A stretch of 46,365 nt of DNA from positions 1 through 46,365 of the forward strand of contig CAYTRL010000001.1 of the NCBI GenBank assembly GCA_964439795.1. The letters run 5' to 3'. Each line of letters opens with the position of its first letter. Within the stretch, counting starts at the first letter, position 1. Of this stretch, positions 755 through 43,840 are shown one piece after another. The notes beneath the pieces are model-generated. The model did not search any database. It saw only the letters and a program-made list of their open reading frames with translations, and was not told the DNA's origin. Position numbers and translations under genes: made by a program. The stretch comes from an uncultured Thermodesulfobacteriota bacterium (GTDB lineage Bacteria; Desulfobacterota; DSWW01).

Positions 755-3553
755 CTAAGGGTGTATGCCCGTGGAGCGGGCCGCAACCAGCCCGCTGGCC
801 GTGAAGGCGTGGGAGATCGGTTGGAGATAGAACAGCATGGGTCTCGGACCGTACATCTCCGGCTTGCACTCCCAACTCCCGTTGGCCCGCTGACGGTCCA
901 TGAGAAAGGAGACTGCCTGACGGATCACCCCCCGGTAGCGGTCCGGGTCCACGCGGCAGAGTTCGGAGACCGCGATCCCGGTGGAGCTTGCACAGGAACT
1001 GGTGCCGGGGATGATCCCCCAGCCGCCATCACTGTTTACCGCCGACATCAGCGCCGCCCGGCCCTTGATGGCCGCCTGGCTTCCGGCGGGAAGGCCCCGC
1101 AGAAGAGCGGACTGAACATAAGGGAAGTTGCGGCAGAGTCCGCCCCTCCACCCGCCGTCCAGGTCCTGGTGCTCGCCGATCCACTGCACCGCCCTCTTCA
1201 TGCTGATTTCCCCATCCTGCCCACAGGCGGTGACGGCTTCCAGAATGTGCCCCAGAACCTCGGGAACCACGGCGTCTCCCGCGGACTGCCACGTGGTCCA
1301 CAGGCCCATGGCCTCCTGGTTCCGGCCGAGATAAGAGAGCCCGGAGCCCAGGGCGTTCTTAATCCTTTCCGCAATCTCCGGGTCCAGCTGGATCTTTTTG
1401 GCGTCGTTCAGGGCCAGAAGTGTGTGTGCTGTGGATTCGTTGTCTGAGATGATTCCCGGCGAATAGCCCCACCCGCCGTCCTCGTTCTGGGACCGGACCA
1501 GAAAAGCCAGGGCCTGAGCCAGGGCCTGGCTCTGGAATTCTTTGTTGTCGATAAACGCGCGAACGATCATGGACGTAGCCCACATGTCCAGGTTCACGTA
1601 CGACCAGAACCCCTGATCGTCCTGTGCCTGCACCAGGTACGAGGCCGCTTTCCGTGCTTCCACCGAGCGGTTGGTTTCCAGGAACGCAAGAAAGGCCATG
1701 GCCGTGGATACCGGGTTGTTCCAGATGGAGCCGTCGTTCCACTGCAACTCGGGCAGCAGACCGGCCACGGTCTTGTCGCCCAGGAGCACGCGCACGGAGA
1801 GCAGGTCGGACAGGGCCCAGGGTTTCAGGGACTTCCTTTTCTCCTCGGAATCGGTGTGGGACTGAAGCTGTTTGAGGATCTGCTCCTTGCGACGAAAGCT
1901 GCTCATGGACCGCTCGGTGGACGTGGCCAGGGCGGCCAGGATCTCGGTCTTGCGCATGTAGATCGGGTCAAACAGCAGGGGGTCGGACAGGTCGATGGCA
2001 CCGAACCTCTCCATGGCAAGGGAGTACGCCATCTCTTCGTAAATCTCCGCCACCCGGTGGTGGTTCTGCACGGCCTGTCCCCGGAGCCACAGCCTCGCCT
2101 GCTGCACCGTGGCTTCGTGTTCCCCGGACCGGCCCAGGGCCACGGCCACGATGGCCGTTTCAAAGATTCTCGGGCTGGAAGAGCCGGACCATTTCCCACT
2201 GGCCTCCTGGGTGTCCAGGGCAAACCCCACCGCCTTGTTGATCGCTCTCGTCAATCCACCGTCTGGTCCCCGCAGCTCGTTCAGGGCTGCCTGCACGGCG
2301 TTGGTGGTGATCTCCCCCGTCTGCACCGCCTGGCGAACCACGTGCTGCAGTTCGTCACCCCGCGCCCCCAGGCCCAGGGCGATGCTCCGGGCGTGCAGGG
2401 ACATGTGTCCCCGCTGGATCCCCTCGGAGGCCAAGGCCCGTACCGCGGCCAGGTTCTGGGCGATTCCCACGGCGGCGGCGACCCGCGCGAGATCCGACGC
2501 TTTTTCGATCTTCAACATCTTCAAGCAGGCCTGCGCCACGGGGTTGATCGACACGCCCCCCCCCACGATGCCCACGGCCATGGGGAGGGTCAGCTTGCCC
2601 GCCACGAACCGGCCGCCCTCCTCGTCCTCTTCGATCCGCCACACGGACAGGGGTTTGTAGCTTCCCTCCCGGCTGGCAAATGCGTGGGCCCCGGATTCGA
2701 TGCTCCTCCAGTCGTTCCCACAGGCGATGATCACGGAATCCACACCGTTCATGATCCCTTTGTTGTGTGTGGCGGCCCGGTACGGGTCGATCTCGGCGAT
2801 CCGGGATGCGGCCACGATCCCCTCGGCCACCCGTTCCGCGGTGAAGTTCTTGGTGACGAACGCGTTGATAGGGATCCGCACACGGCTGGTCACGCAGCGT
2901 CGGTCCGCCAGGTTGGAAAGGATCTTGAGGCCGGGTTTTCCGCCGGTCAACTCCGCAAAGGTGCCGGCCATGGCCTCGCAGGCCGTGTTGATGAGGTTCG
3001 CGCCCATGGCGTCCCGACAGTCGAGAACGATGTGCACCACCGCGTGACCGGCCGGGGCATCCACCACCCGGAACACCACGTCTCTGGCCCCGCCGCCCCT
3101 TGCCTTGAGGCGGGGATGGATCTGGTCGATCTGGCGGATGAGTTTCTCCTTTTCCGCCTCTATCTTCTTTCCTGCCGCATCCAGATCCGGAACGCCCCGC
3201 ATCTCGATCTGTCCGATCATCTCGGGCTCGTCACACTCTGTGAAGATGCCTCCCCCCTCCCGGGCGAACTTCGCACCGTTGGAGGCCGCTGCGATGACGG
3301 AAGGCTCCTCCACCGCCATGGGCACCAGGACCGTCTTCCCGTCGATGATGAAGTTGGTTCCCAGCCCCAGGGGAAGAAAGGTTACGCCGATCACGTTTTC
3401 CACGGTGGCCGAGGCAACGCGGACCCCCTCCTGAAAGGCCAGCAACAGGGAACTGTCCTTCTCGCTGAGGTCCCCGCGCTGGATCAGCAGGTCGTGCCGC
3501 TCCTCAACCGTCAGATTCCGGAACCCGGAAAGGGCTGAAGTGTCTTTCGCCAT
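755..3553 (-). CDS. Fusion protein: N-terminal class II HMG-CoA reductase plus a C-terminal ~500-aa QW-repeat (squalene-hopene cyclase / prenyltransferase alpha-alpha toroid-like) domain
   Basis: Continuous frame. ATG at 3553 (MAKDTSAL) is preceded by GGAGGA about 7 nt upstream, and the 20 codons the ORF track adds before it are unlikely to be real. HMGR motifs: ENVIG, EEPSVIAAAS, DCRDAMGANLIN, DPYRAATHNKGIMNG, GNDWR, VGIVGGG, EGIQRGHMSLHAR. The C-terminal half has 7 repeats of the type QNEDGGWGY, QDLDGGWRGG, NSDGGWGI and RANGSWE. Confidence 0.9.
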   Translation of the reverse strand: MAKDTSALSGFRNLTVEERHDLLIQRGDLSEKDSSLLLAFQEGVRVASATVENVIGVTFLPLGLGTNFIIDGKTVLVPMAVEEPSVIAAASNGAKFAREGGGIFTECDEPEMIGQIEMRGVPDLDAAGKKIEAEKEKLIRQIDQIHPRLKARGGGARDVVFRVVDAPAGHAVVHIVLDCRDAMGANLINTACEAMAGTFAELTGGKPGLKILSNLADRRCVTSRVRIPINAFVTKNFTAERVAEGIVAASRIAEIDPYRAATHNKGIMNGVDSVIIACGNDWRSIESGAHAFASREGSYKPLSVWRIEEDEEGGRFVAGKLTLPMAVGIVGGGVSINPVAQACLKMLKIEKASDLARVAAAVGIAQNLAAVRALASEGIQRGHMSLHARSIALGLGARGDELQHVVRQAVQTGEITTNAVQAALNELRGPDGGLTRAINKAVGFALDTQEASGKWSGSSSPRIFETAIVAVALGRSGEHEATVQQARLWLRGQAVQNHHRVAEIYEEMAYSLAMERFGAIDLSDPLLFDPIYMRKTEILAALATSTERSMSSFRRKEQILKQLQSHTDSEEKRKSLKPWALSDLLSVRVLLGDKTVAGLLPELQWNDGSIWNNPVSTAMAFLAFLETNRSVEARKAASYLVQAQDDQGFWSYVNLDMWATSMIVRAFIDNKEFQSQALAQALAFLVRSQNEDGGWGYSPGIISDNESTAHTLLALNDAKKIQLDPEIAERIKNALGSGLSYLGRNQEAMGLWTTWQSAGDAVVPEVLGHILEAVTACGQDGEISMKRAVQWIGEHQDLDGGWRGGLCRNFPYVQSALLRGLPAGSQAAIKGRAALMSAVNSDGGWGIIPGTSSCASSTGIAVSELCRVDPDRYRGVIRQAVSFLMDRQRANGSWECKPEMYGPRPMLFYLQPISHAFTASGLVAARSTGIHP

Positions 3554-3801
3554 TGTTTCCTCCTCATTCACGGGATATCGATAAATGTACTGAGTTCCAA
3601 GTGAAAATGTCAACGAAGCGGCGGCTTGTCTGATGGCCCTGGATCGATTATGCTCGAAAGACGCTCCTAAGAACTCGTTGAAAAATGAGGCTTATGGAGA
3701 CTGTTGAAAAAGCCAATGCCACCCCTGTACACGAGTGCAAAAAGAGGTCGCTTTTTCATATGTTCAGGGTCCCGAGCATCCCACTCCGCAGGAGAACGAA
3801 C

Positions 3802-4839
3802 ATGAACCAGACCGAGCAGCGAAAAATGGAGCACATCCGGATCTGCCTCGAAAAGAAGGTGGACACCGGAGATCCCCTCTTCGATGAGGTCACTCTGGTC
3901 CATCAGACACTCAACGATCTGGACCTCGAGGCTGTGGATTGCTCGCAGACCTTTCTGGGAAAACGGCTGGATTTTCCCTTGCTTATCGCTGGGATGACCG
4001 GGGGCTGCCGGGAAGCCAGAGAGATCAACCTGGCCCTGGCCGGGGCCGCGGAACGGAAGGGGGTGGCCTTCGGGGTGGGTTCCCAGCGTGCCATGATCGA
4101 AAACCCGGACCTCACCGATACCTTTGCCGTGCGGGAGGCGGCGCCGACGACCCCCCTTCTGGGGAACCTCGGGATTACGGCCCTGAGAAAATACCCGCTT
4201 TCCCGGGTTCACCAGGCCGTAGAGAGTATCGGAGCGGATGCCCTGTGCGTGCATATCAACCCTGCCCAGGAACTGTTTCAGCATGAGGGGGACCTGGATT
4301 TTTCCGGCTGCCCGGAGGCGCTCCGAAGGCTCTGTGAGGACGCCGGGTACCCGGTGATCGCCAAGGAGGTGGGAACCGGTACCCGCCGGGAAAGCGCCCT
4401 GCTTCCGGAACAGTGGGGGGGGCTGGCCATCGACCTGGGGGGCCTGGGGGGGACCAGCTGGGTGCTCGTGGACAGCATCCGTTCCGGAATGGATTCAAGC
4501 CGGTTCCGTGTCTGGGGAATCCCCACCGCGGCCTCCATCCTGGAGGCCGGGGTCGCGGGCGTTCCGCTGATTGCCACGGGCGGCGTACGCAACGGCCTGC
4601 ACATGGCCAAGGCCGTTCTGCTCGGTGCGGATCTTTGCGGAATCGCCCTGCCGTTCATCCGGATCCTGGACCAGAAGGGGGTGGAGGGGGTGGATGGATA
4701 CATCGATACCCTGAAGCGTGAGTTCCGCTATGCCCTCTACTTGACGGGCTCGGTGAACGTGGCGGATTTCCGCCGGAAGAAGCCGGTGCTGGGCGCACGC
4801 ATTCTGGAATGGGTCCGGCAGCGCGAGCTTGCTCTCTAA
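3802..4839 (+). CDS. fni: Type 2 isopentenyl-diphosphate delta-isomerase (FMN-dependent IDI-2)
   Basis: Start MNQTEQRKMEHIRI at ATG 3802 with GGAGA 6-7 nt upstream. Motifs: LLIAGMTGG, GVGSQR, VHINPAQEL, PVIAKEVGTG, GGLGGTSW, IATGGVRNGLHMAKAVLLGA. 345 aa, typical for fni. Confidence 0.9.
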   Translation: MNQTEQRKMEHIRICLEKKVDTGDPLFDEVTLVHQTLNDLDLEAVDCSQTFLGKRLDFPLLIAGMTGGCREAREINLALAGAAERKGVAFGVGSQRAMIENPDLTDTFAVREAAPTTPLLGNLGITALRKYPLSRVHQAVESIGADALCVHINPAQELFQHEGDLDFSGCPEALRRLCEDAGYPVIAKEVGTGTRRESALLPEQWGGLAIDLGGLGGTSWVLVDSIRSGMDSSRFRVWGIPTAASILEAGVAGVPLIATGGVRNGLHMAKAVLLGADLCGIALPFIRILDQKGVEGVDGYIDTLKREFRYALYLTGSVNVADFRRKKPVLGARILEWVRQRELAL

Positions 4840-6813: not shown

Positions 6814-6847
6814 CCGGCCGTTGAAAAAGTGGGATCCTGTGTTTTCC

Positions 6848-6917
6848 GTCATTCCGGACTTGATCCGGAATCCAGCATTTTCAAGCACCGCTGGATCCCG
6901 GCCTTCACCGGGATGAC
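6848..6917. repeat. REP-like palindromic repeat, same family as 512-575
   Basis: gtcattccggacttgatccggaatcc...ctggatcccggccttcaccgggatgac, compared with gtcatcccggacttgatccgggatcc...ctggatgccggcc at 512-575. Internal hairpin attccgga-N6-tccggaat. Confidence 0.7.
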
Positions 6918-10452: not shown

Positions 10453-10690
10453 GCGACGTTGGGCTCGGTCCGTGTCGCTACGATGACCTTCAAGGTCTAT
10501 CTCGCGACCCGGCCCTTCACCCGCCTTGCATACGAGCACTTCTTGCCCGCCGGAACAGAATAGAAAACCCTTACTATTTCCTTCCTTTTGGAAACTTCAG
10601 AACCGAAACATTGAGTTCCACGGGTGAGGGGGTAAGCCAGGCGGCCGCTGGGGAGTTCCCGGAGGACGCAGGGGCCGGTTCAGGTCTTTT
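10453..10690. repeat. Composite ~230-bp intergenic repeat, copy A
   Basis: Shares two blocks with 43590-43840: caa(a)ggtct.tctcgcgacccgg.ccttcacccgccttgcat...gcacttcttg.ccgccggaa, then about 70 nt later agccaggcggccgctggggagtt(t)cccg.aggacgc. Begins 26 nt after the cobO stop. Confidence 0.75.
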
Positions 10691-10946
10691 GAAGGCCCCA
10701 AGGACGAGGGAAGCTCCCCCGGACGCCCCCATCTGCTGCGTTCCCCCTTGCCGCGTCGCTGCGGCGACCTACGGTCGCTCCAACGTACGAAAAGTACGCC
10801 TCCGCTCCTCGGCTGCGGGGCGCCTTGCATATGGACCTTTCTCGAAAGCCGAAGCGAAAGGGTGGGGGAAATAAGGAACACGGGTGGCACCGATCTCGTT
10901 ATAGAAACCGGGTTCTTGCAGGAAAGGAATCTGATCTGGGAAGAAG

Positions 10947-11148
10947 CGGCGTTGGGCTCGTTCCGTATCGCTGCGACGACCTCAAAGGTCTGTCTCGCGA
11001 TCCGGCCCTTCACCCGCCTTGCATCCCCGCGATTTCTGCATGCCTACAACAGGCAAGCGTTCCGTCAAGTAGTTTAAGAAATCGCGTTCTTTACAGGCAC
11101 TTCTTGCCCGCTGGAATCGAATCATGAACCCTGTATTCTCAACAACCT
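10947..11148. repeat. Composite intergenic repeat, copy B (first block only, with a ~60-nt insertion)
   Basis: gcgttgggctcgttccgtatcgctgcgacgacctcaaaggtctgtctcgcgatccggcccttcacccgccttgcat ... ggcacttcttgcccgctggaatcgaatc. Ends at the stop codon of the convergent VWA gene. Confidence 0.7.
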
Positions 11149-30417: not shown

Positions 30418-30510
30418 GGGGTCAGGTCTTCATTCTACATTTTTCGTCTATCCGAACAAGTTCTCCAGCGCGGCACCCACGAGAAAAATGTAGAATGAAG
30501 ACCTGACCCC
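30418..30510 (-). repeat. 93-nt hairpin element, copy 1 (perfect 28-bp AT-rich stem, 37-nt loop)
   Basis: ggggtcaggtcttcattctacatttttc (30418-30445) is the exact reverse complement of gaaaaatgtagaatgaagacctgacccc (30483-30510). The element's reverse complement is about 90% identical to 39506-39598. It sits 6 nt downstream of the methyltransferase stop codon. Confidence 0.85.
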
Positions 30511-30516
30511 ACCGTT

Positions 30517-31203
30517 TCACTTCACCGATCGAGCGATGAAGAAGGTTCCCTGATTGTACCGTTCCACGGTCACGTTTCCGAACAGTCTTTCCATCTGTCC
30601 GGGGATGTCACGGAAAGGGTCCCATGCGGCATATTTTCGGTAGAGGATTTCCACCAGGGGGTTCAGGACGCGCAACGGCCCGTGGAACAGGGAGGCATCA
30701 CACACCGAGAGCACGCCCCCGGGGCGGAGGAGTTCCCTGCTGCGTTCAAGCGCCCGTTTCCATTCGGGGATGGCGCTCACCGCAAGTACGCTCAATACGC
30801 CGTCGAAGTCGGTCTCTCCGGTCTCCAGTCGAGCGGCGTCGCCCTGCACGAGCGTCACATTGTGCCATCCCTTTTTCCGGCACAGGGCCCCCGCCGCCGA
30901 CAGCACGTCCGTTGAATAGTCGAAGGCCACGATACGGCCCGCGGACCCCACGCGGTTTTCCAGGTGCACCAGGTTTCGGCCCGTGCCGCAGCCCATCTCC
31001 AGGATCCTGCCCCCGGCAGAGACGCCCAGGGCGTCCGCGGCCCGGCCCCGGATCAATCCCGGTCGGCCCAGAAAGGTCAGATAGTCCGAGGCCGCATACA
31101 GCAGGGGATGATGACCCCAGAATCGGTAGACCTTGAGGACGGTTTCAAGCTTTGCAGGCAGGGCTGTATCGGCTTTCCCGGACGGATTGAGATCCTTTTC
31201 CAT
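30517..31203 (-). CDS. Class I SAM-dependent methyltransferase
   Basis: Motif I ILEMGCGTGRNL, plus VAFDYS and LRPGGVLSV. Confidence 0.8.
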   Translation of the reverse strand: MEKDLNPSGKADTALPAKLETVLKVYRFWGHHPLLYAASDYLTFLGRPGLIRGRAADALGVSAGGRILEMGCGTGRNLVHLENRVGSAGRIVAFDYSTDVLSAAGALCRKKGWHNVTLVQGDAARLETGETDFDGVLSVLAVSAIPEWKRALERSRELLRPGGVLSVCDASLFHGPLRVLNPLVEILYRKYAAWDPFRDIPGQMERLFGNVTVERYNQGTFFIARSVK

Positions 31204-36542: not shown

Positions 36543-36653
36543 CTCCCCCGGCGGATTTCAGGAGAAGAGGATGCCTGCTCACACCTTTGTCGTCGTTGGA
36601 AAAAAACCCGAAAAGAAAAACCAAACGTTTCCCGGAAAGTGACAGAAGGAGCC

Positions 36654-39500
36654 ATGGCGCATCATCGGGGAGGATATCTGGAGATCCGCGGGGCGGCGGA
36701 GCACAACCTGAAAAGTATCTCTCTGCGCATCCCGAAAAACCGGCTCGTGGTCTTTGCCGGCCCCTCGGGTTCCGGGAAGTCCTCCCTGGCCTTCGACACC
36801 CTCTACGCGGAAGGACAGCGCCGGTACATCGAATCCCTTTCCTCTTATGCCCGCCAGTTTCTCGGGCAGATGGACAAGCCACGATACGACCAGATCCGCG
36901 GGTTGAGCCCCACCATCAGCATCGAGCAGAAGGCGGCCAGCAATAACCCCCGGTCCACGGTGGGAACGATCACCGAGGTGTACGACTACCTGCGGGTGCT
37001 CTATGCCCGGGTGGGCCGCCAGCACTGCCACGGCTGCGGGCGTGCCGTGGAGCCGCTGTCCGGCCAGCAGATCGTGGACCGCGTCCTGGGGCTCAAAGCC
37101 GGCACCCGGTTCCTGCTCCTGGCTCCGCTCGTGGAGAACCGGAAGGGGGCCCACCGGGAGCTGCTGGCGGATGCCGTCCGGGAGGGGTACACCCGCGTGC
37201 GGATCGACGGCGAGGTCTGTGCCGCCCAGGAGGCCCCGGCCCTGGACAAGAACCGGAAACACACCCTGGAGATCGTGGTGGACCGGCTGGTGGCCCCGGA
37301 CCCCGCGGGGGAGAGCTACCGGGCGCGCCTCACGGATTCGGTGGAAATGGCCCTCCGGAAGGGGGACGGCCGGGTGATCTGCGCCCAGGTCTCCGGGGAA
37401 GAACGGCTCTACTCCAGGCACCTGCACTGTCCGCACTGTGATCTGGGCTTTCCCAACCTGACGCCCCAGAGCTTTTCCTTCAACTCGCCCCTGGGTATGT
37501 GCCCCGACTGCAACGGCCTGGGCATCAAACCCGAGATGGATCCGGACCTGGTGGTTCCCGATCCCACCCTGAGCGTCCGACAGGGGGCCGTGGAGCCCTG
37601 GGCCCGGGTGATGGAGCGTTCCGGGAGCTGGACCGGATCCCTGATCCACCGGTTTGCCACTGAATACGGGGTGGACTTGGACCGGCCCTGGAACCGGCTT
37701 CCCCGGAAGCATCGGGACCTGCTCCTGTACGGGTCCCGGGGCCGGAAGATCGCCATGACCCTGGAGTTCGCCTCCGGAAAGCTGGAATGGGCCCGGGCCT
37801 TCGAGGGCGTGCTCAACGAGTTGTACCGCCGGTTCCGGCAGACGAAGTCCGAAAGCATGCGCAAGTATTACATGCGCTATTTGTCCGAGGCCCGGTGCTC
37901 CTCCTGTCTGGGGAAGCGGCTCCGGCCCGAGTCGGTCATGGTCAAGCTGGCCGGCGTGAGTTTGCCGGAACTCACTGCCATGACCATACAGCAGACAGCG
38001 GACTTCCTGCAGCGCATGCCCCTGGACCGCACGGAGAAGAAGATCGCCGTGGAGGTTCTCAAGGAGATCCGGTCCCGGCTGGGGTTTCTCACCGGCGTGG
38101 GTCTGGGGTATCTCACCCTGGACCGTGCGGGGCCGTCCCTGTCCAGCGGGGAGGGACAGCGGATCCGGCTGGCCAGTCAGATCGGGAGTGAGCTCACCGG
38201 GGTGCTCTACATCCTGGACGAGCCCTCCATCGGGCTGCACCCGCGCGACAACGGGCGCCTGCTCCAGACCCTGGAGCAGCTGCGGGACACGGGAAATACA
38301 GTGATCGTGGTGGAGCACGACACCGAGACCGTCCGGGCCGCGGACCACGTAGTTGATTTCGGCCCGGGGGCCGGCGTGGACGGGGGGCGGGTGGTCTTCT
38401 CGGGTACGCCCGCTCAGATAGCCCGTTCCCGGCAATCGCTTACGGGAAAGTACCTTTCCGGAAGGCTCTGCATCGAGACCCCTGCCGCCAGGAGGCCGGG
38501 CTCCGGGAAACAGATCGCCGTGAAGGGGGCCGCCGAGAACAACCTGAAGGATCTCACCGTGGGGTTTCCCCTGGAAACCTTCGTGGCCGTCACGGGGGTT
38601 TCAGGCGCCGGCAAGAGCACCCTGGTGAACGCGATCCTCTATCCGGCCCTGCGGCGTTCCCTTTACGGAAGCACCGTGGCGGTGGGGGCTCACCGCAGGA
38701 TTTCCGGGGCCGGCGGCATCGACAAGGTGATCGATATCGACCAGCGACCCATCGGGCGCACGCCCCGGTCCAACCCGGTGACCTATACCAAGGTGTTCGA
38801 CCACATCCGCCGGGTGTTTTCCCTGACCCCCGAGTCCCGCGCCTACGGGTTCAAGCCGGGGCGCTTCTCGTTCAACGTGAAGGGGGGCCGGTGCGAGACC
38901 TGCCAGGGGGACGGGGTCCGGCGGATCGAGATGCACTTCCTGCCGGACGTGTACGTGACCTGCGAGGTCTGCGGGGGCAAGCGGTTCAACGACGCGACCC
39001 TGCGTGTGCGCTTCAAAGGGCTCAACATCGCCGAGGTGCTCGATCTCTCCGTGCGGGAGGCCATGGTGGTGTTTGCCAATCAGCCCCGGGTGATGGCGGG
39101 CCTGACCACCCTGGCCGATGTGGGGGTGGATTACCTGCGCCTGGGCCAGCCCTCACCCACCCTGTCCGGCGGGGAAGCGCAGCGGATCAAGCTGGCCCGG
39201 GAGCTTTCCCGCAGCGCCACGGGACGCACCCTGTACATCCTGGACGAGCCCACCACCGGTCTTCACCCCCACGACCTTCGCAAGCTGCTCCAGGTGCTGA
39301 ACCGGCTCGTGGACGCGGGCAACTCGGTGATCGTCATCGAGCACAACCTGGACGTGATCCGGTGCGCGGACCATGTGATCGACCTGGGACCCGAGGGCGG
39401 GGACGGCGGGGGAACCGTGGTGGTCACCGGCACGCCCGAGGCGGTCTCCCGCTGCAGGCGAAGCTACACCGGCCGCTATCTCCGGGAAGTCCTGTCATAG
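36654..39500 (+). CDS. uvrA: Excinuclease ABC subunit A
   Basis: [13 protein letters not shown], two ABC modules ([44 protein letters not shown]), and Zn-finger Cys pairs (CPHC...CPDC, CETC...CEVC). Confidence 0.95.
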
Positions 39501-39505
39501 TAGCC

Positions 39506-39598
39506 GGGGCCAGGTCTTCATTTTACATTTTTCTCGTAGATGCCGTGCCGGACAACTCGTTCGGATAGACGAAAAATGTAAAATGAAGACCTGACCCC
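39506..39598 (+). repeat. 93-nt hairpin element, copy 2 (27/28-bp stem)
   Basis: ggggccaggtcttcattttacatttttc ... gaaaaatgtaaaatgaagacctgacccc. Starts 5 nt after the uvrA TAG. The loop is 31/37 identical to the reverse complement of the copy-1 loop. Confidence 0.85.
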
Positions 39599-39638
39599 AT
39601 GATGTCTTCCGTCACGTTCCGACCGGTGGTTTTATCGC

Positions 39639-39668
39639 TTGACACACGATTCTCTCTTTCCCTATGCT
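39639..39668 (+). promoter_or_regulatory. Sigma70-like promoter upstream of the sensor kinase operon
   Basis: TTGACA (39639-39644), 18-nt spacer, TATGCT (39663-39668). Confidence 0.4.
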
Positions 39669-39978
39669 GACGAACAGGGATAAGGCTCTTTTCTTTTTTT
39701 GTCTTTCTTTCTCCTTTCCCGTCTGTTGCGTGAGCCGATCAAGAACCACCCTCCGCCCTGTAGATCCGGCTGCCGATGAAGGAGGGAGCAGGGCCTCTGT
39801 GCTTTCGGAAGTACAGGGCTCCGTTTTCTGCCGATCCATGCGGATGGCGACGGGAAGGACGACACGTGTCGATGATCGACGGTCTTGCACACGGCGACCC
39901 CCTGTTCCCTCCCGGGAAGGCCACCGGAACGGAGGCGTCTCCGGATTGGGGGATCCGATGGGGGCGGAGAGGATCACC

Positions 39979-41997
39979 ATGGATCTGAGCTCGATCTACC
40001 GAACCGTCCTGGAACATATGAATGAGCAGGTCTACGTCCGGGACCTGGACATGAACCTTCTTTATATAAATCCTGCGGCGGAATCGCTTACCGGATGGCC
40101 TGCTCAAGAGGCCATGGGAAAGAAATGCTACGAGGTGTTCGGTGACGCCGAACGGGAATGCAAAAAGGTCTGTCCCGTAGAAAAGGCGATTTCTTCGAAC
40201 CAGTGCATCTTCCATCATGAGGGCAGGCTGAAAACCAGAGGCGGCCGTGTCCTGGACATGCAGGTTTCCATTTCACCGCTCCTTACCGGGGCAGAAGTGG
40301 CGGGCGCGGCCGTGGTCATGCAGGACATCACCCGCCTGAAGAAGGCCGAGGAAACCCACGTCAAGGCCCTGGCCGCCCTGGAAAAGGAGGTGGAGGAAAG
40401 CAGGAATCGATATTCGGTCTCGCTGGACGCCGTGCCGGATTTAGTGTTTGAGATCGCCCTGGACGGCACGTTTCTGTACGTGAACCGGTTCGCCGTAGAG
40501 ACCCTCGGCTACTCCAGGGAAACGTTCGGCAGGCTCAACCTCGCGGATCTTCTCGACGAGGAAGCGCTGAAGGAGTGGGGGGAGCGGTACGCCCGGTTGC
40601 TCGAGACAAAGGATCTGGGGGGAGCGTACAGGCGCAATGTGCGGAAGAGCGACGGAACGTTTGTTCCCCTGGAAGCGCATGCGGTTTTTCTCGAAAGGCG
40701 CGGCCGGCAGCCCACGATCCTGGGCGTAGCGCGTCTCATCTCCGAACGGCTGGAACGGGAAGAGCGGATGGAGAAGCTGAACCGTCTCCGGGAGGAACTG
40801 CTCAAACCCGCCGGCCTTCGCGAGAAGCTCGCCATCATCTCCGAGGGGATCGTATCGGTTTTCAGGGCGGATCTGTGTCGTATATGGGTCACGAAACCCG
40901 GCGATCTCTGTGAAACAGGCTGCATTCACAGCCAGGGCGAAGAGGGCCCCCACCTTTGTCGCTCTCGGCATCTCTGTCTCCACCTCCTTGTCAGCTCCGG
41001 ACGATACACGCACACCGACGGGGAAGTCCACGGTCGGGTTCCGTTCGGATGCTACAAGATCGGGAAGCTGGCTTCCGGAGAATATCAGAAATTTCTCACC
41101 AACGAGGCCGCGCAAGAGCCGGCCATCCACGATCAGGAGTGGGTAAGAGAGCGGGGCCTGGTCTCCTTCGCCGGGTACAGGCTCCTTTCCGCGCAGGAGG
41201 ATGTCATCGGCGTCCTGGCCCTTTTCAGCCGGAACGCCCTTTCTCCGGAGGAGGACGCGTTGCTGGAAGGGCTTGCCGGTACCGCCTCCCAGGTCATCCA
41301 GACAGCCGAGGTGGAGGACGCCTTGCGGCAGCATGCGGAGTTGCAAAAGGTTCTTCTCCGCGAGGTCAACCACCGGGTCAAGAACAATCTGTCCGCCATC
41401 ATCGGAATGCTGTACATGGAAAAAGATCATGCCGAGGGCCAGGGGGACGCGTCCTATCTGAACGTGCTTGGAGATCTGGTCGGGCGTGTGGAAGGACTTT
41501 TAACGGTCCACAGCCTGTTGTCCGCATCCGGCTGGCATCCGTTGAATTTAACTGAGCTTTGCGAACAGGTGGTCAACGGTTCGCTGCAGGGAGTGCCTTT
41601 GGACAAAACCGTTTCGGTCGACGTGAACCGGAGCACCGAAAGCATATCGAGCAATCAGGCCCATCACCTCACCCTGGTCATCAATGAGCTCGCAACCAAT
41701 ACGGTCAAGCATGCGCTGGCCGAAAACGATGCCGTAAAAATCCACATGGATATCTTTCGGGAGGGAGAGGATGTCCATATCGTCTTCAGAGATGACGGGC
41801 CCGGCTATCCCCGGGCCATGATGGAAGGGGATTTGCGCCGGGCGGGGGTCGGGTTCGATCTCATCGTGGGTATCGTCCGGGAAACTCTGCGGGGCAGGGT
41901 GCGGCTCGATAACGACAACGGAGCCGTGACGACCCTTGTCTTCAAACCCGGGAAAGACCAGGAACCGATGGGAGGCGGTACGTTTGAAGGGAAATGA
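39979..41997 (+). CDS. PAS-PAS-GAF sensor histidine kinase with a HisKA_2-type H-box
   Basis: PAS: VLEHMNEQVYVRDLDMNLLYINPAAESLTGW. Second PAS: PDLVFEIALDGTFLYVNRFAVETLGYSRE. H-box: EVNHRVKNNLSAIIGML. ATPase: LVINELATNTVKHA, FRDDGPGYP. Start at 39979 (GGAGAGGA 6 nt upstream) or 39958. The upstream 100 codons of the ORF track are not protein-like. Confidence 0.8.
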   Translation: MDLSSIYRTVLEHMNEQVYVRDLDMNLLYINPAAESLTGWPAQEAMGKKCYEVFGDAERECKKVCPVEKAISSNQCIFHHEGRLKTRGGRVLDMQVSISPLLTGAEVAGAAVVMQDITRLKKAEETHVKALAALEKEVEESRNRYSVSLDAVPDLVFEIALDGTFLYVNRFAVETLGYSRETFGRLNLADLLDEEALKEWGERYARLLETKDLGGAYRRNVRKSDGTFVPLEAHAVFLERRGRQPTILGVARLISERLEREERMEKLNRLREELLKPAGLREKLAIISEGIVSVFRADLCRIWVTKPGDLCETGCIHSQGEEGPHLCRSRHLCLHLLVSSGRYTHTDGEVHGRVPFGCYKIGKLASGEYQKFLTNEAAQEPAIHDQEWVRERGLVSFAGYRLLSAQEDVIGVLALFSRNALSPEEDALLEGLAGTASQVIQTAEVEDALRQHAELQKVLLREVNHRVKNNLSAIIGMLYMEKDHAEGQGDASYLNVLGDLVGRVEGLLTVHSLLSASGWHPLNLTELCEQVVNGSLQGVPLDKTVSVDVNRSTESISSNQAHHLTLVINELATNTVKHALAENDAVKIHMDIFREGEDVHIVFRDDGPGYPRAMMEGDLRRAGVGFDLIVGIVRETLRGRVRLDNDNGAVTTLVFKPGKDQEPMGGGTFEGK

Positions 41998-42634
41998 GAA
42001 CATTCGCGTCCTGATCGTGGAAGACGACTACCTCATCGGTGAAACGATAAAGCGTACGCTGAAAACGATCGGTTATGAGGTGGCCGGGAAAGCCTCCAAT
42101 GGGCTTGAAGCCGTGGAGATGGCCTGTTCCCTGCGGCCGGATATCGTTCTCATGGATATCCAGATGCCGGATCTCGATGGCCTGGAAGCCACCCGCCGGA
42201 TCCAGGAATGTTGCCCCGTGCCTGTCGTGGCCCTGACCGCGTACGAATCACAGGATCTCGTGAACAAAGCAGGCGAGGTGGGTGTTGCCGCCTACTTGAC
42301 CAAGCCGCCAAGACGTGCCGAGATCGAAAGAGCTGTCACGATCGCCATGGCGCGACATCGGGACATGATGGAATTGCGCCGGCTCTACGGGGAACTGGAG
42401 ACCCAAAAAAACGAGATCGAGAAAGCCCTGGCTGAAATCAAGATCCTTCGAGGGATTCTCCCCATTTGTTCCCGATGCAAAAATATCCGAAACGACAAAG
42501 GGTACTGGGAAGAGGTTGAAGCATATGTCGGCAGGTATTCAGAAGCTGCATTCAGCCACGGTTTATGCCCGGGTTGCATGGACAAGCTTTATGGCGATGA
42601 AGACTGGTACAAGAAAAGCCAGGGCGAAAAATAG
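41984..42634 (+). CDS. Response regulator: receiver domain, coiled-coil linker, and a C-terminal CxxC...CxxC module
   Basis: IRVLIVEDDYLIG...IVLMDIQMPDLDG...VVALTAY...YLTKP. C-terminus: ILPICSRCKNIRNDKGYWEEVEAYVGRYSEAAFSHGLCPGCMDKLYG. Likely TTG start at 41984 (GGGAGG 8 nt upstream) overlapping the kinase stop; an ATG at 41936 is also possible. Confidence 0.8.
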   Translation: MKGNENIRVLIVEDDYLIGETIKRTLKTIGYEVAGKASNGLEAVEMACSLRPDIVLMDIQMPDLDGLEATRRIQECCPVPVVALTAYESQDLVNKAGEVGVAAYLTKPPRRAEIERAVTIAMARHRDMMELRRLYGELETQKNEIEKALAEIKILRGILPICSRCKNIRNDKGYWEEVEAYVGRYSEAAFSHGLCPGCMDKLYGDEDWYKKSQGEK

Positions 42635-42691
42635 CTTCCCGGCATTCGCTGCAACCTCCCCTGCCGTCCATGCGGAACCGCCCGGACCGGA

Positions 42692-42720
42692 TTGACAAGG
42701 TGGATCTTCCTCCCTAAACT
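42692..42720 (+). promoter_or_regulatory. Sigma70-like promoter upstream of lpxA
   Basis: TTGACA (42692-42697), 17-nt spacer, TAAACT (42715-42720), 46 nt upstream of the ATG. Confidence 0.45.
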
Positions 42721-43589: not shown

Positions 43590-43840
43590 TCGGCTTCCGA
43601 TACACGCCCTCAAAGGTCTGTCTCGCGACCCGGACCTTCACCCGCCTTGCATCCTTCCTCCCCCTTGCATACGTGCACTTCTTGTCCGCCGGAATCGAAT
43701 CGAGAAAATCCGATACATTCCCGCAATCCCCATAAGGTGAATACAGGAACTGAACAATAGAGGCTCTTGAGGGAAGCGGGGAAAAGCCAGGCGGCCGCTG
43801 GGGAGTTTCCCGTAGGACGCGTTCCGTTTACAGGTCCGGT
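43590..43840. repeat. Composite ~230-bp intergenic repeat, copy C
   Basis: ctcaaaggtctgtctcgcgacccggaccttcacccgccttgcat...gcacttcttgtccgccggaatcgaatc, then agccaggcggccgctggggagtttcccgtaggacgc. Begins right after the lpxA stop, and its distal end overlaps the 3' end of the convergent lipoprotein gene. Confidence 0.75.

Follow-up and report, generated by a model that had tools for sequence, protein, structure and literature searches.

Two copies of a 93-nt hairpin lie in the stretch of DNA analyzed here (46,365 nt from an uncultured Thermodesulfobacteriota bacterium, referred to below as the window), each of them just past the stop codon of a gene. This arrangement raises the question of whether the hairpins are structured RNA elements that are maintained by the host, or copies of a mobile element. 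Our analysis indicates that each hairpin is probably a non-autonomous miniature derivative of a TIRtron, i.e., of a parent element of ~1.05-1.09 kb, in which 26-nt terminal inverted repeats (TIRs) of the sequence GGGGTCAGGTCTTCATTCTACATTTT flank a single TIRYT gene. The observations made directly on the loci are the identity of the arms with the TIRs of TIRYT genes, a series of element sizes, the GGGG/CCCC ends, the lack of a target-site duplication (TSD), and a candidate empty site. An RNA-level function as the primary explanation is unsupported.

The copies at 30418-30510 (copy 1) and 39506-39598 (copy 2) form an inverted pair with 90% identity across all 93 nt. In each copy, a 37-nt loop is enclosed by inverted arms of 28 nt, whose complementarity is 100% for copy 1 and 96% for copy 2 (Table 1). 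The original prediction had described the full-length alignment of the two copies, the identity of 31 of the 37 loop nucleotides, the location on opposite strands with a shared orientation relative to the upstream gene, and the start 5-6 nt past a stop codon. All four statements were confirmed, the loop identity by direct reading of both copies and the distances as 5 nt for the uvrA TAG and 6 nt for the methyltransferase TGA. It had also been stated that the arms differ at one position and that this difference is compensated. The change is real (cattCtac/gtaGaatg versus cattTtac/gtaAaatg); however, a second, uncompensated difference was overlooked. In copy 2, the 5' arm reads GGGGCC and its partner GGGGTC, and this C-A mismatch accounts for the lower arm match of that copy.

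Table 1. Coordinates of the two hairpin copies and their context, and sizes of the elements bounded by the same TIR. Numerical positions refer to the window; L numbers denote retrieved loci.
Feature	Position or locus	Strand	Remarks
Copy 1 of the same element	30418..30510	.	Opposite chromosomal orientation; between methyltransferase stop and nitroreductase start codons
Copy 1 arm (TIR)	30418..30445	+	First 26 nt equal the TIR consensus, 26/26
Copy 1 second arm (TIR)	30483..30510	-	100% complementary to the copy 1 first arm
Methyltransferase stop codon TGA (context)	30517..30519	-	6 nt ahead of copy 1
uvrA stop codon TAG (context)	39498..39500	+	5 nt ahead of copy 2
Copy 2 of the miniature element (TIR dimer/hairpin)	39506..39598	.	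Between uvrA stop codon and PAS/histidine-kinase gene
Copy 2 outer arm (TIR), GGGGCCAGGTCTTCATTTTACATTTTTC	39506..39533	+	Position 5 is C versus T in the family, giving the partner mismatch
Copy 2 37-nt loop/spacer	39534..39570	+	31/37 identical to the copy 1 loop
Copy 2 second arm (TIR)	39571..39598	-	Minus-strand reading GGGGTCAGGTCTTCATTTTACATTTTTC; family consensus except for the C/T polymorphic site
Flank resuming homology with the L022 unoccupied uvrA 3' region	39599..39625	+	Junction GCC/ATG versus CCATG
Element of 83 nt	L012, L014		
Element of 93 nt	Window		
Elements of 159 and 187 nt	L017, L018		
Element of 352 nt	L010, L015		
Elements of 1055-1092 nt	L009, L027, L031		

The gene upstream of copy 2, uvrA (36639-39500), encodes a protein with UvrA_inter and UvrA_DNA-bind domains (Pfam). 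Its nearest named relatives come from Planctomycetota, Myxococcota and Deltaproteobacteria MAGs, with an identity of 72-73% where listed, which is too remote for a taxonomic assignment. Copy 1 follows a class I methyltransferase gene on the minus strand (30517-31203), and the start of the nitroreductase gene lies 25 nt beyond the end of this copy. Five other samples carry both hairpins at these loci, differing by one or two SNPs, and a strain variant (L004) carries an uncompensated change in the innermost arm pair of copy 1. The predicted DNA fold is strong on both strands (-29 to -32 kcal/mol, z -8 to -11), and the RNA fold of the gene-sense transcript reaches -53 and -59 kcal/mol for the two copies (z -6 to -7). 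Four occurrences of the arm pattern were counted in the window, versus an expectation of zero in shuffled sequences (n = 100). The adjoining contig (9.2 kb) has no further copy, which leaves two dimers in 55.6 kb in total, and a search of viral contigs for more copies found none.

Other repeats in the window are of different kinds. An unrelated intergenic repeat of ~100 nt (CCTCAAAGGTCTGTCTCGCGACCCGGCCCTTCACCCGCCTTGCAT ... GCACTTCTTGCCCGCCGGAATCGAAT) is present in three copies (10453-10567, 10946-11128 and 43604-43706) with a core that is 82-94% identical; it may belong to a further small repeat family or mark a regulatory region that the copies share. At least three places (466-568, 690-720 and 6842-6903) contain REP-like palindromes, GTCATYCCGGACTTGATCCGGRATCCAG and CTGGATTCCGGGTCATGCCCGGAATG, that are unrelated to the TIRYT-type hairpin.

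The arms of the hairpins are a transposon TIR with a 26-nt consensus. The ends were found by orienting all matches and then searching with mismatches. Among 185,579 species-representative genomes, the arm was detected in one Gemmatimonadota MAG only, as two single ends and without hairpins, and the scan of JGI metagenome contigs for the arm, in a collection from which the source sample is absent, yielded 12 further stretches. Elements delimited by near-identical TIRs in these metagenomes and MAGs range from 83 to 1092 nt in size. Across 29 distinct ends located in unrelated contexts, it is the terminal 26 nt that are conserved, and the homology breaks off exactly at GGGG/CCCC. No TSD of any length was found at 11 bounded elements, including copy 1 with its 100% matching arms.

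Full-length elements of ~1.05-1.09 kb encode a protein of 323-343 aa that combines an IS200-like Y1 HUH domain with a DnaA-C helix-turn-helix (HTH). For example, the TIR-bounded element of 1055 nt in L009 (3238-4292) contains one ORF (3304-4275, 323 aa), and the stop codon of this ORF is located inside the right TIR. Its product has the Pfam domains Y1_Tnp (IS200-like) and Bac_DnaA_C, scores 84.1 bits against the NCBIfam equivalog NF047646 "REP-associated tyrosine transposase" (cut-off 80), and aligns in its C-terminal part to DnaA domain IV structures. An alignment of 18 homologues shows no variation at H60 and H62 (the HUH residues) or at Y119. A TIRYT is a RAYT-like tyrosine transposase of the HUH/Y1 type that is fused to a DnaA-domain-IV-like HTH. 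The protein family comprises more than 6,000 clusters at E <= 1e-10, and its named members are annotated as "transposase" or "REP element-mobilizing transposase RayT", including those from Planctomycetota and Phycisphaerae MAGs.

Three homologues with about 58-61% amino acid identity were retrieved together with their flanks. In two of them (L027 and L031), both ends carry the same TIR, with 1-5 mismatches in 26; the third one (L030, a Planctomycetota MAG) lacks a right TIR and has a tandem pair of left TIRs, with 0 and 2 mismatches. Since homologues at this level of identity carry the same TIR, the TIR is conserved together with the protein across deep divergence. We did not detect a TIRYT gene in the 55.6 kb of this genome, either within the window (tblastn with the L009 TIRYT as a query) or in the 9.2-kb adjoining contig (Y1_Tnp), and all TIRYT genes bounded by these TIRs come from other genomes.

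The elements form a graded series of sizes (Table 1). The 352-nt (tblastn E 2.5e-12) and 187-nt (E 8.5e-05) elements have kept remnants of the TIRYT C-terminus, which identifies them as internal-deletion derivatives; in the 159-nt element, the TIRYT remnant was not significant (tblastn E 5.8). The 37-nt loop had only chance-level matches of 9-13 nt to all retrieved loci and no homology to a TIRtron interior. Descent by internal deletion is thus demonstrated for the 187- and 352-nt elements and is assumed for the 93-nt type. We also considered the stretch upstream of the single ends as a small protein gene (...RKM*); this candidate was rejected due to inconsistent open frames, and the stretch is decayed TIRYT 3' sequence.

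Several loci have unusual arrangements of TIRs. In L009, the right TIR and 21 nt of its outside flank are tandemly duplicated (4246-4292 and 4293-4339, a 47-nt unit), and this duplication may have arisen through slippage or through an aberrant or one-ended event. The two tandem left TIRs of L030 (1375-1461) are 61 nt apart and precede a TIRYT gene that no longer has its right TIR, and L031 (373-2536) contains two tandem TIRYT genes with a left TIR ahead of each. In L017, a second, divergent TIRYT-like gene fragment (2862-3302; 35% identical to the L009 protein, E 1.3e-23) shares a short contig with two miniature elements.

In the Gemmatimonadota MAG (CAZVGK010000016, also L011), two single right ends (L002 3640-3702 and L001 1880-1939) are in the same orientation and 6.2 kb apart, each accompanied by ~35 nt of decayed TIRYT 3' sequence. 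An EcoRV-like endonuclease and a D12 methyltransferase are encoded between these ends, which adjoin Mrr_cat and DUF5615 genes; no left ends were found within reach. An integron attC/cassette array was rejected as an explanation for these same-orientation ends, which have neither R'/R'' core sites nor a palindrome partner. The arrangement may reflect chance or a one-ended mobilization of defence genes. The outside flanks of various ends (the window, L010, L013, L027, L002, L016, L017 and L020) often have AT(C/G)AT or (A)TTTTCC next to the ends, which may represent a target preference in a sample that is small and of biased composition.

The site downstream of uvrA provides a comparison with a candidate unoccupied state. 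Relatives whose UvrA is 86% identical, with conserved upstream synteny (YhhN, LarA, uvrA), do not have the element. Right after uvrA, the L022 sequence reads ...CTTCCATGCTTCCGTCACTCTCGCGAC, and that of the window ...TAGCC(93 nt)ATGATGTCTTCCGTCACGTTCCGAC; that is, the contiguous CCATGCTTCCGTCAC of L022 corresponds to GCC(93 nt)ATGATGTCTTCCGTCAC in the window. When the element is removed, the junction GCC/ATG aligns to the contiguous CCATG of L022. The score of the downstream local alignment between the window and L022 was reached in 7 of 2000 shuffles. The 3' end of uvrA in L022 is a plausible empty site without a duplication, although the local alignment is short and the downstream gene differs. 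For copy 1, no empty site was found among the closest methyltransferase homologues (70% identity), which are not syntenic.

Copy 2 is also located at a synteny break (window 39600-42700 versus L021 6842-7983). In L021, where UvrA is 86% identical, a LpxA-like acetyltransferase gene directly follows uvrA, whereas in the window a PAS/histidine-kinase and response-regulator pair, adjoining the hairpin, separates uvrA from the LpxA-like acetyltransferase gene.

How the miniature copies might move can be outlined by analogy with IS200/IS605 and RAYT enzymes. We infer that TIRYT acting in trans would excise and insert the miniature copies, and that the movement would proceed through single-stranded DNA intermediates. 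For IS608 TnpA and E. coli TnpA_REP, the substrate is single-stranded DNA and no duplications result; the DnaA-type HTH is a double-strand binder. On a single strand, the arms of a 93-nt copy would snap together and rebuild a duplex TIR, which could then be recognized by the HTH domain and the HUH nuclease. Such pairing would explain why short copies keep near-perfect arms with the same TIR variant on both arms, and this favoring of matched arms would account for the "compensatory" change without any selection on RNA. After an insertion a few nucleotides past a stop codon, the element would be transcribed to give a 28-bp RNA stem. It is plausible that this stem incidentally affects the stability of the mRNA 3' end, as a side effect and not as the origin of the element.

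A more far-reaching scenario, which we regard as unlikely, is a long-lived partnership of the REPIN kind outside Proteobacteria. The TIRYT HTH would read the duplex TIR rebuilt on single-stranded DNA at the replication fork, and the host would keep the post-stop, fixed-orientation copies as mRNA 3'-end/stability elements. If true, this scenario would imply a new mode of end reading by HUH enzymes (a double-stranded TIR read via the HTH, and not a subterminal hairpin with a guide tetranucleotide), as well as an RNA-level exaptation.

A purely host-selected structured 3' UTR RNA, i.e., a terminator, a stabilizer of the mRNA 3' end or an RNase III site with arms kept by RNA pairing, is in our judgment quite improbable. 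The observations that fit it are the location of both copies 5-6 nt past a stop codon in a shared gene-relative orientation, the very stable RNA folds given above, the one compensated arm change, and the retention of both copies in the five other samples. In addition, a sigma-70-like promoter match (39639-39668; TTGACA, 18 nt, TATGCT; 10/12) lies 41 nt downstream of copy 2 and precedes the PAS/histidine-kinase gene, so that termination of uvrA transcripts close to the hairpin is possible. It is also known that upstream mRNA is stabilized by REP elements. Conversely, the arms are a transposon TIR that is common to TIRYT genes in other phyla, and the element is absent from the relatives with 86% identical UvrA. 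A terminator-like site was found at neither copy, the tails being ATGATGTC and GACTACAA with no T/U run. The Rfam search gave no matches at the gathering threshold and, below it, only look-alikes of eukaryotic miRNA-precursor hairpins.

To look for covariation between the arms, we treated those of 12 bounded elements as pseudo-hairpins in an alignment and tallied the pairs. The fraction of pairing cells was 90.8%, compared to 89.4% in shuffles of these 12 TIR pairs; there were four double-change pairs versus 2.8 +/- 0.7, a number reached in 76 of 500 shuffles; and the covariation score was 0.114 versus 0.098 (reached in 33 of 500), a value inside the stated false-positive range of the tool. 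By the tool's own caveats, these figures are no evidence of structural selection. Arm differences in the family are mostly uncompensated, and copy 2 and the L004 variant contribute one uncompensated mismatch each. The site called compensatory is a family-wide C/T-G/A polymorphism: pair 18:47 is C-G in seven elements, T-A in two and mismatched in three. The right-arm member of the pair coincides, in the parent element, with position three of the TIRYT stop codon (TAG versus TAA), and both variants of the site occur among left TIRs as well. In the window, the stop-codon site corresponds to position 30493 in copy 1, paired with 30435, and to position 39581 in copy 2, paired with 39523.

The position and orientation of the hairpins do not support an RNA function, either. 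Agreement in orientation between two copies has a 50% chance (n = 2, p = 0.5), other family members are located 5-380 nt from ORF ends in mixed orientation, and the gene-remnant elements are sense to neighboring genes in some cases and antisense in others. Thus, the orientation-dependent function at the RNA level that was proposed in the original prediction is unsupported. The suggested "selection on, or templated copying of, the structure" holds in its second part, as both hairpins are insertions of one mobile-element family; its first part is not supported, given that covariation does not exceed that of shuffles. It should be noted that variable position, mixed orientation and uncompensated arm differences had been named in advance as observations that would speak against an RNA element, and they are largely what we observed.

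Very improbable, in turn, is a strict REPIN, which would consist of two inverted REP units (short palindromes with a terminal GTAG) moved by a single-copy, vertically inherited RAYT. The doublet of inverted units that forms a hairpin of ~90 nt, the lack of TSDs, the GTAG present inside the copy 1 arm, and the fact that the associated protein passes the NCBIfam RAYT model are all consistent with it. However, the 28-nt arm has no internal self-complementarity and is not itself a palindrome; the GTAG lies within the arm (positions 8-11, counted from its inner end) and is replaced by GTAA in copy 2; and the extra DnaA_C HTH is typical of subclass 2.1, in which no REPs were found (PMC6006769). Furthermore, near-identical TIRs are shared by the Gemmatimonadota MAG, the Planctomycetota MAG and this genome, which argues against strictly vertical, lineage-specific repeats.

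Finally, a classical MITE moved by a DDE transposase, e.g., a Tn3-derived TIME, is the most remote of the explanations: the small size, the intergenic location and TIRs of 26-28 nt that begin with GGGG, as Tn3-family inverted repeats also do, would be in line with it, but a Tn3-type MITE was rejected because Tn3-family elements make 5-bp duplications and no TSD was found at 11 bounded elements, the inner TAAG motif of Tn3 is absent from the TIRs, and the only gene found between these TIRs encodes a Y1 HUH protein and no DDE transposase.

With the hairpins interpreted as miniature TIRtron derivatives, they are explained without a new RNA regulator, and annotators can mask them as mobile-element remnants. 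The results add material to the little-studied TIRYT class, a cousin of the bacterial REP/REPIN repeats. This material comprises (i) a 26-nt TIR with almost no variation between transposases that have diverged to about 55-65% identity and occur in different phyla; (ii) a stop codon within the right TIR, together with the lack of target duplications and a candidate empty site; (iii) a graded deletion series of 1055-1092, 352, 187, 159, 93 and 83 nt. The TIR duplex/hairpin and the enzyme constitute a defined pair for studying DNA movement by a HUH/Y1 nuclease fused to a DnaA-type HTH.

Among the known systems, TIRtrons have been described as RAYT-like TIRYT genes flanked by long TIRs with the motif GGGGWSAS, and their TIRs are also dispersed as single, dimeric and clustered repeats (Di Nocera, De Gregorio and Rocco 2013, PMC3733652). 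Most TIRYTs belong to subclass 2.1 of TnpA_REP, with a Bac_DnaA_C/HTH extension and the TIR consensus GGGG[AT][CG]A[CG] (Quentin et al. 2018, PMC6006769). In the literature searched, we found no experimental work on TIRYT, including any demonstration of its activity. Tested against GGGGWSAS, three of the four window arms read GGGGTCAG, and the copy 2 5' arm reads GGGGCCAG, which departs from the motif at W. The elements analyzed here resemble TIRtrons in having a RAYT-like Y1 HUH gene between long GGGGWSAS TIRs (L009, L027 and L031, with 0-5 mismatches in 26) and a C-terminal HTH of the Bac_DnaA_C type, in the overlap of the right TIR with the 3' end of the gene, and in the occurrence of single, dimeric and clustered TIRs. 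In contrast, the described TIRtrons do not include this TIR sequence, the 93-nt dimer with a 37-nt spacer or the host organism, and the 55.6 kb of this genome yielded no transposase gene.

The hairpins also share features with the REPIN-RAYT system (Bertels and Rainey 2011, PMC3116915; Nunvar 2010; Ton-Hoang 2012), i.e., non-autonomous hairpin doublets of inverted units, an IS200-like Y1 HUH enzyme, no TSD, and an extragenic location that is often just downstream of genes. However, REP units are short palindromes with a terminal GTAG, whereas the arms here are not self-complementary; RAYTs have no DnaA_C domain, whereas the enzyme of this TIR family has one; and REPIN families are lineage-specific, whereas the TIR studied here is nearly identical across phyla. 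With IS200/IS605 and the PATE derivatives, the elements have in common the HUH Y1 chemistry, the absence of TSDs and miniatures that keep only the ends; the ends of IS200/IS605 are different subterminal hairpins on the left and right with no inverted repeats, as opposed to the true 26-nt TIRs found here. MITEs (Correia/NEMIS, RUP, ERIC and Nezha) and Tn3-derived TIMEs are similar in size (80-350 nt), in their TIRs, in being non-coding and intergenic, and in being co-transcribed with neighbors, with long RNA stems possible; unlike the present elements, they are DDE-mobilized and flanked by target-site duplications. By this comparison, the 93-nt element is no new RNA element; it is a TIRYT/TIRtron-derived TIR dimer that is functionally analogous to REPINs and MITEs.
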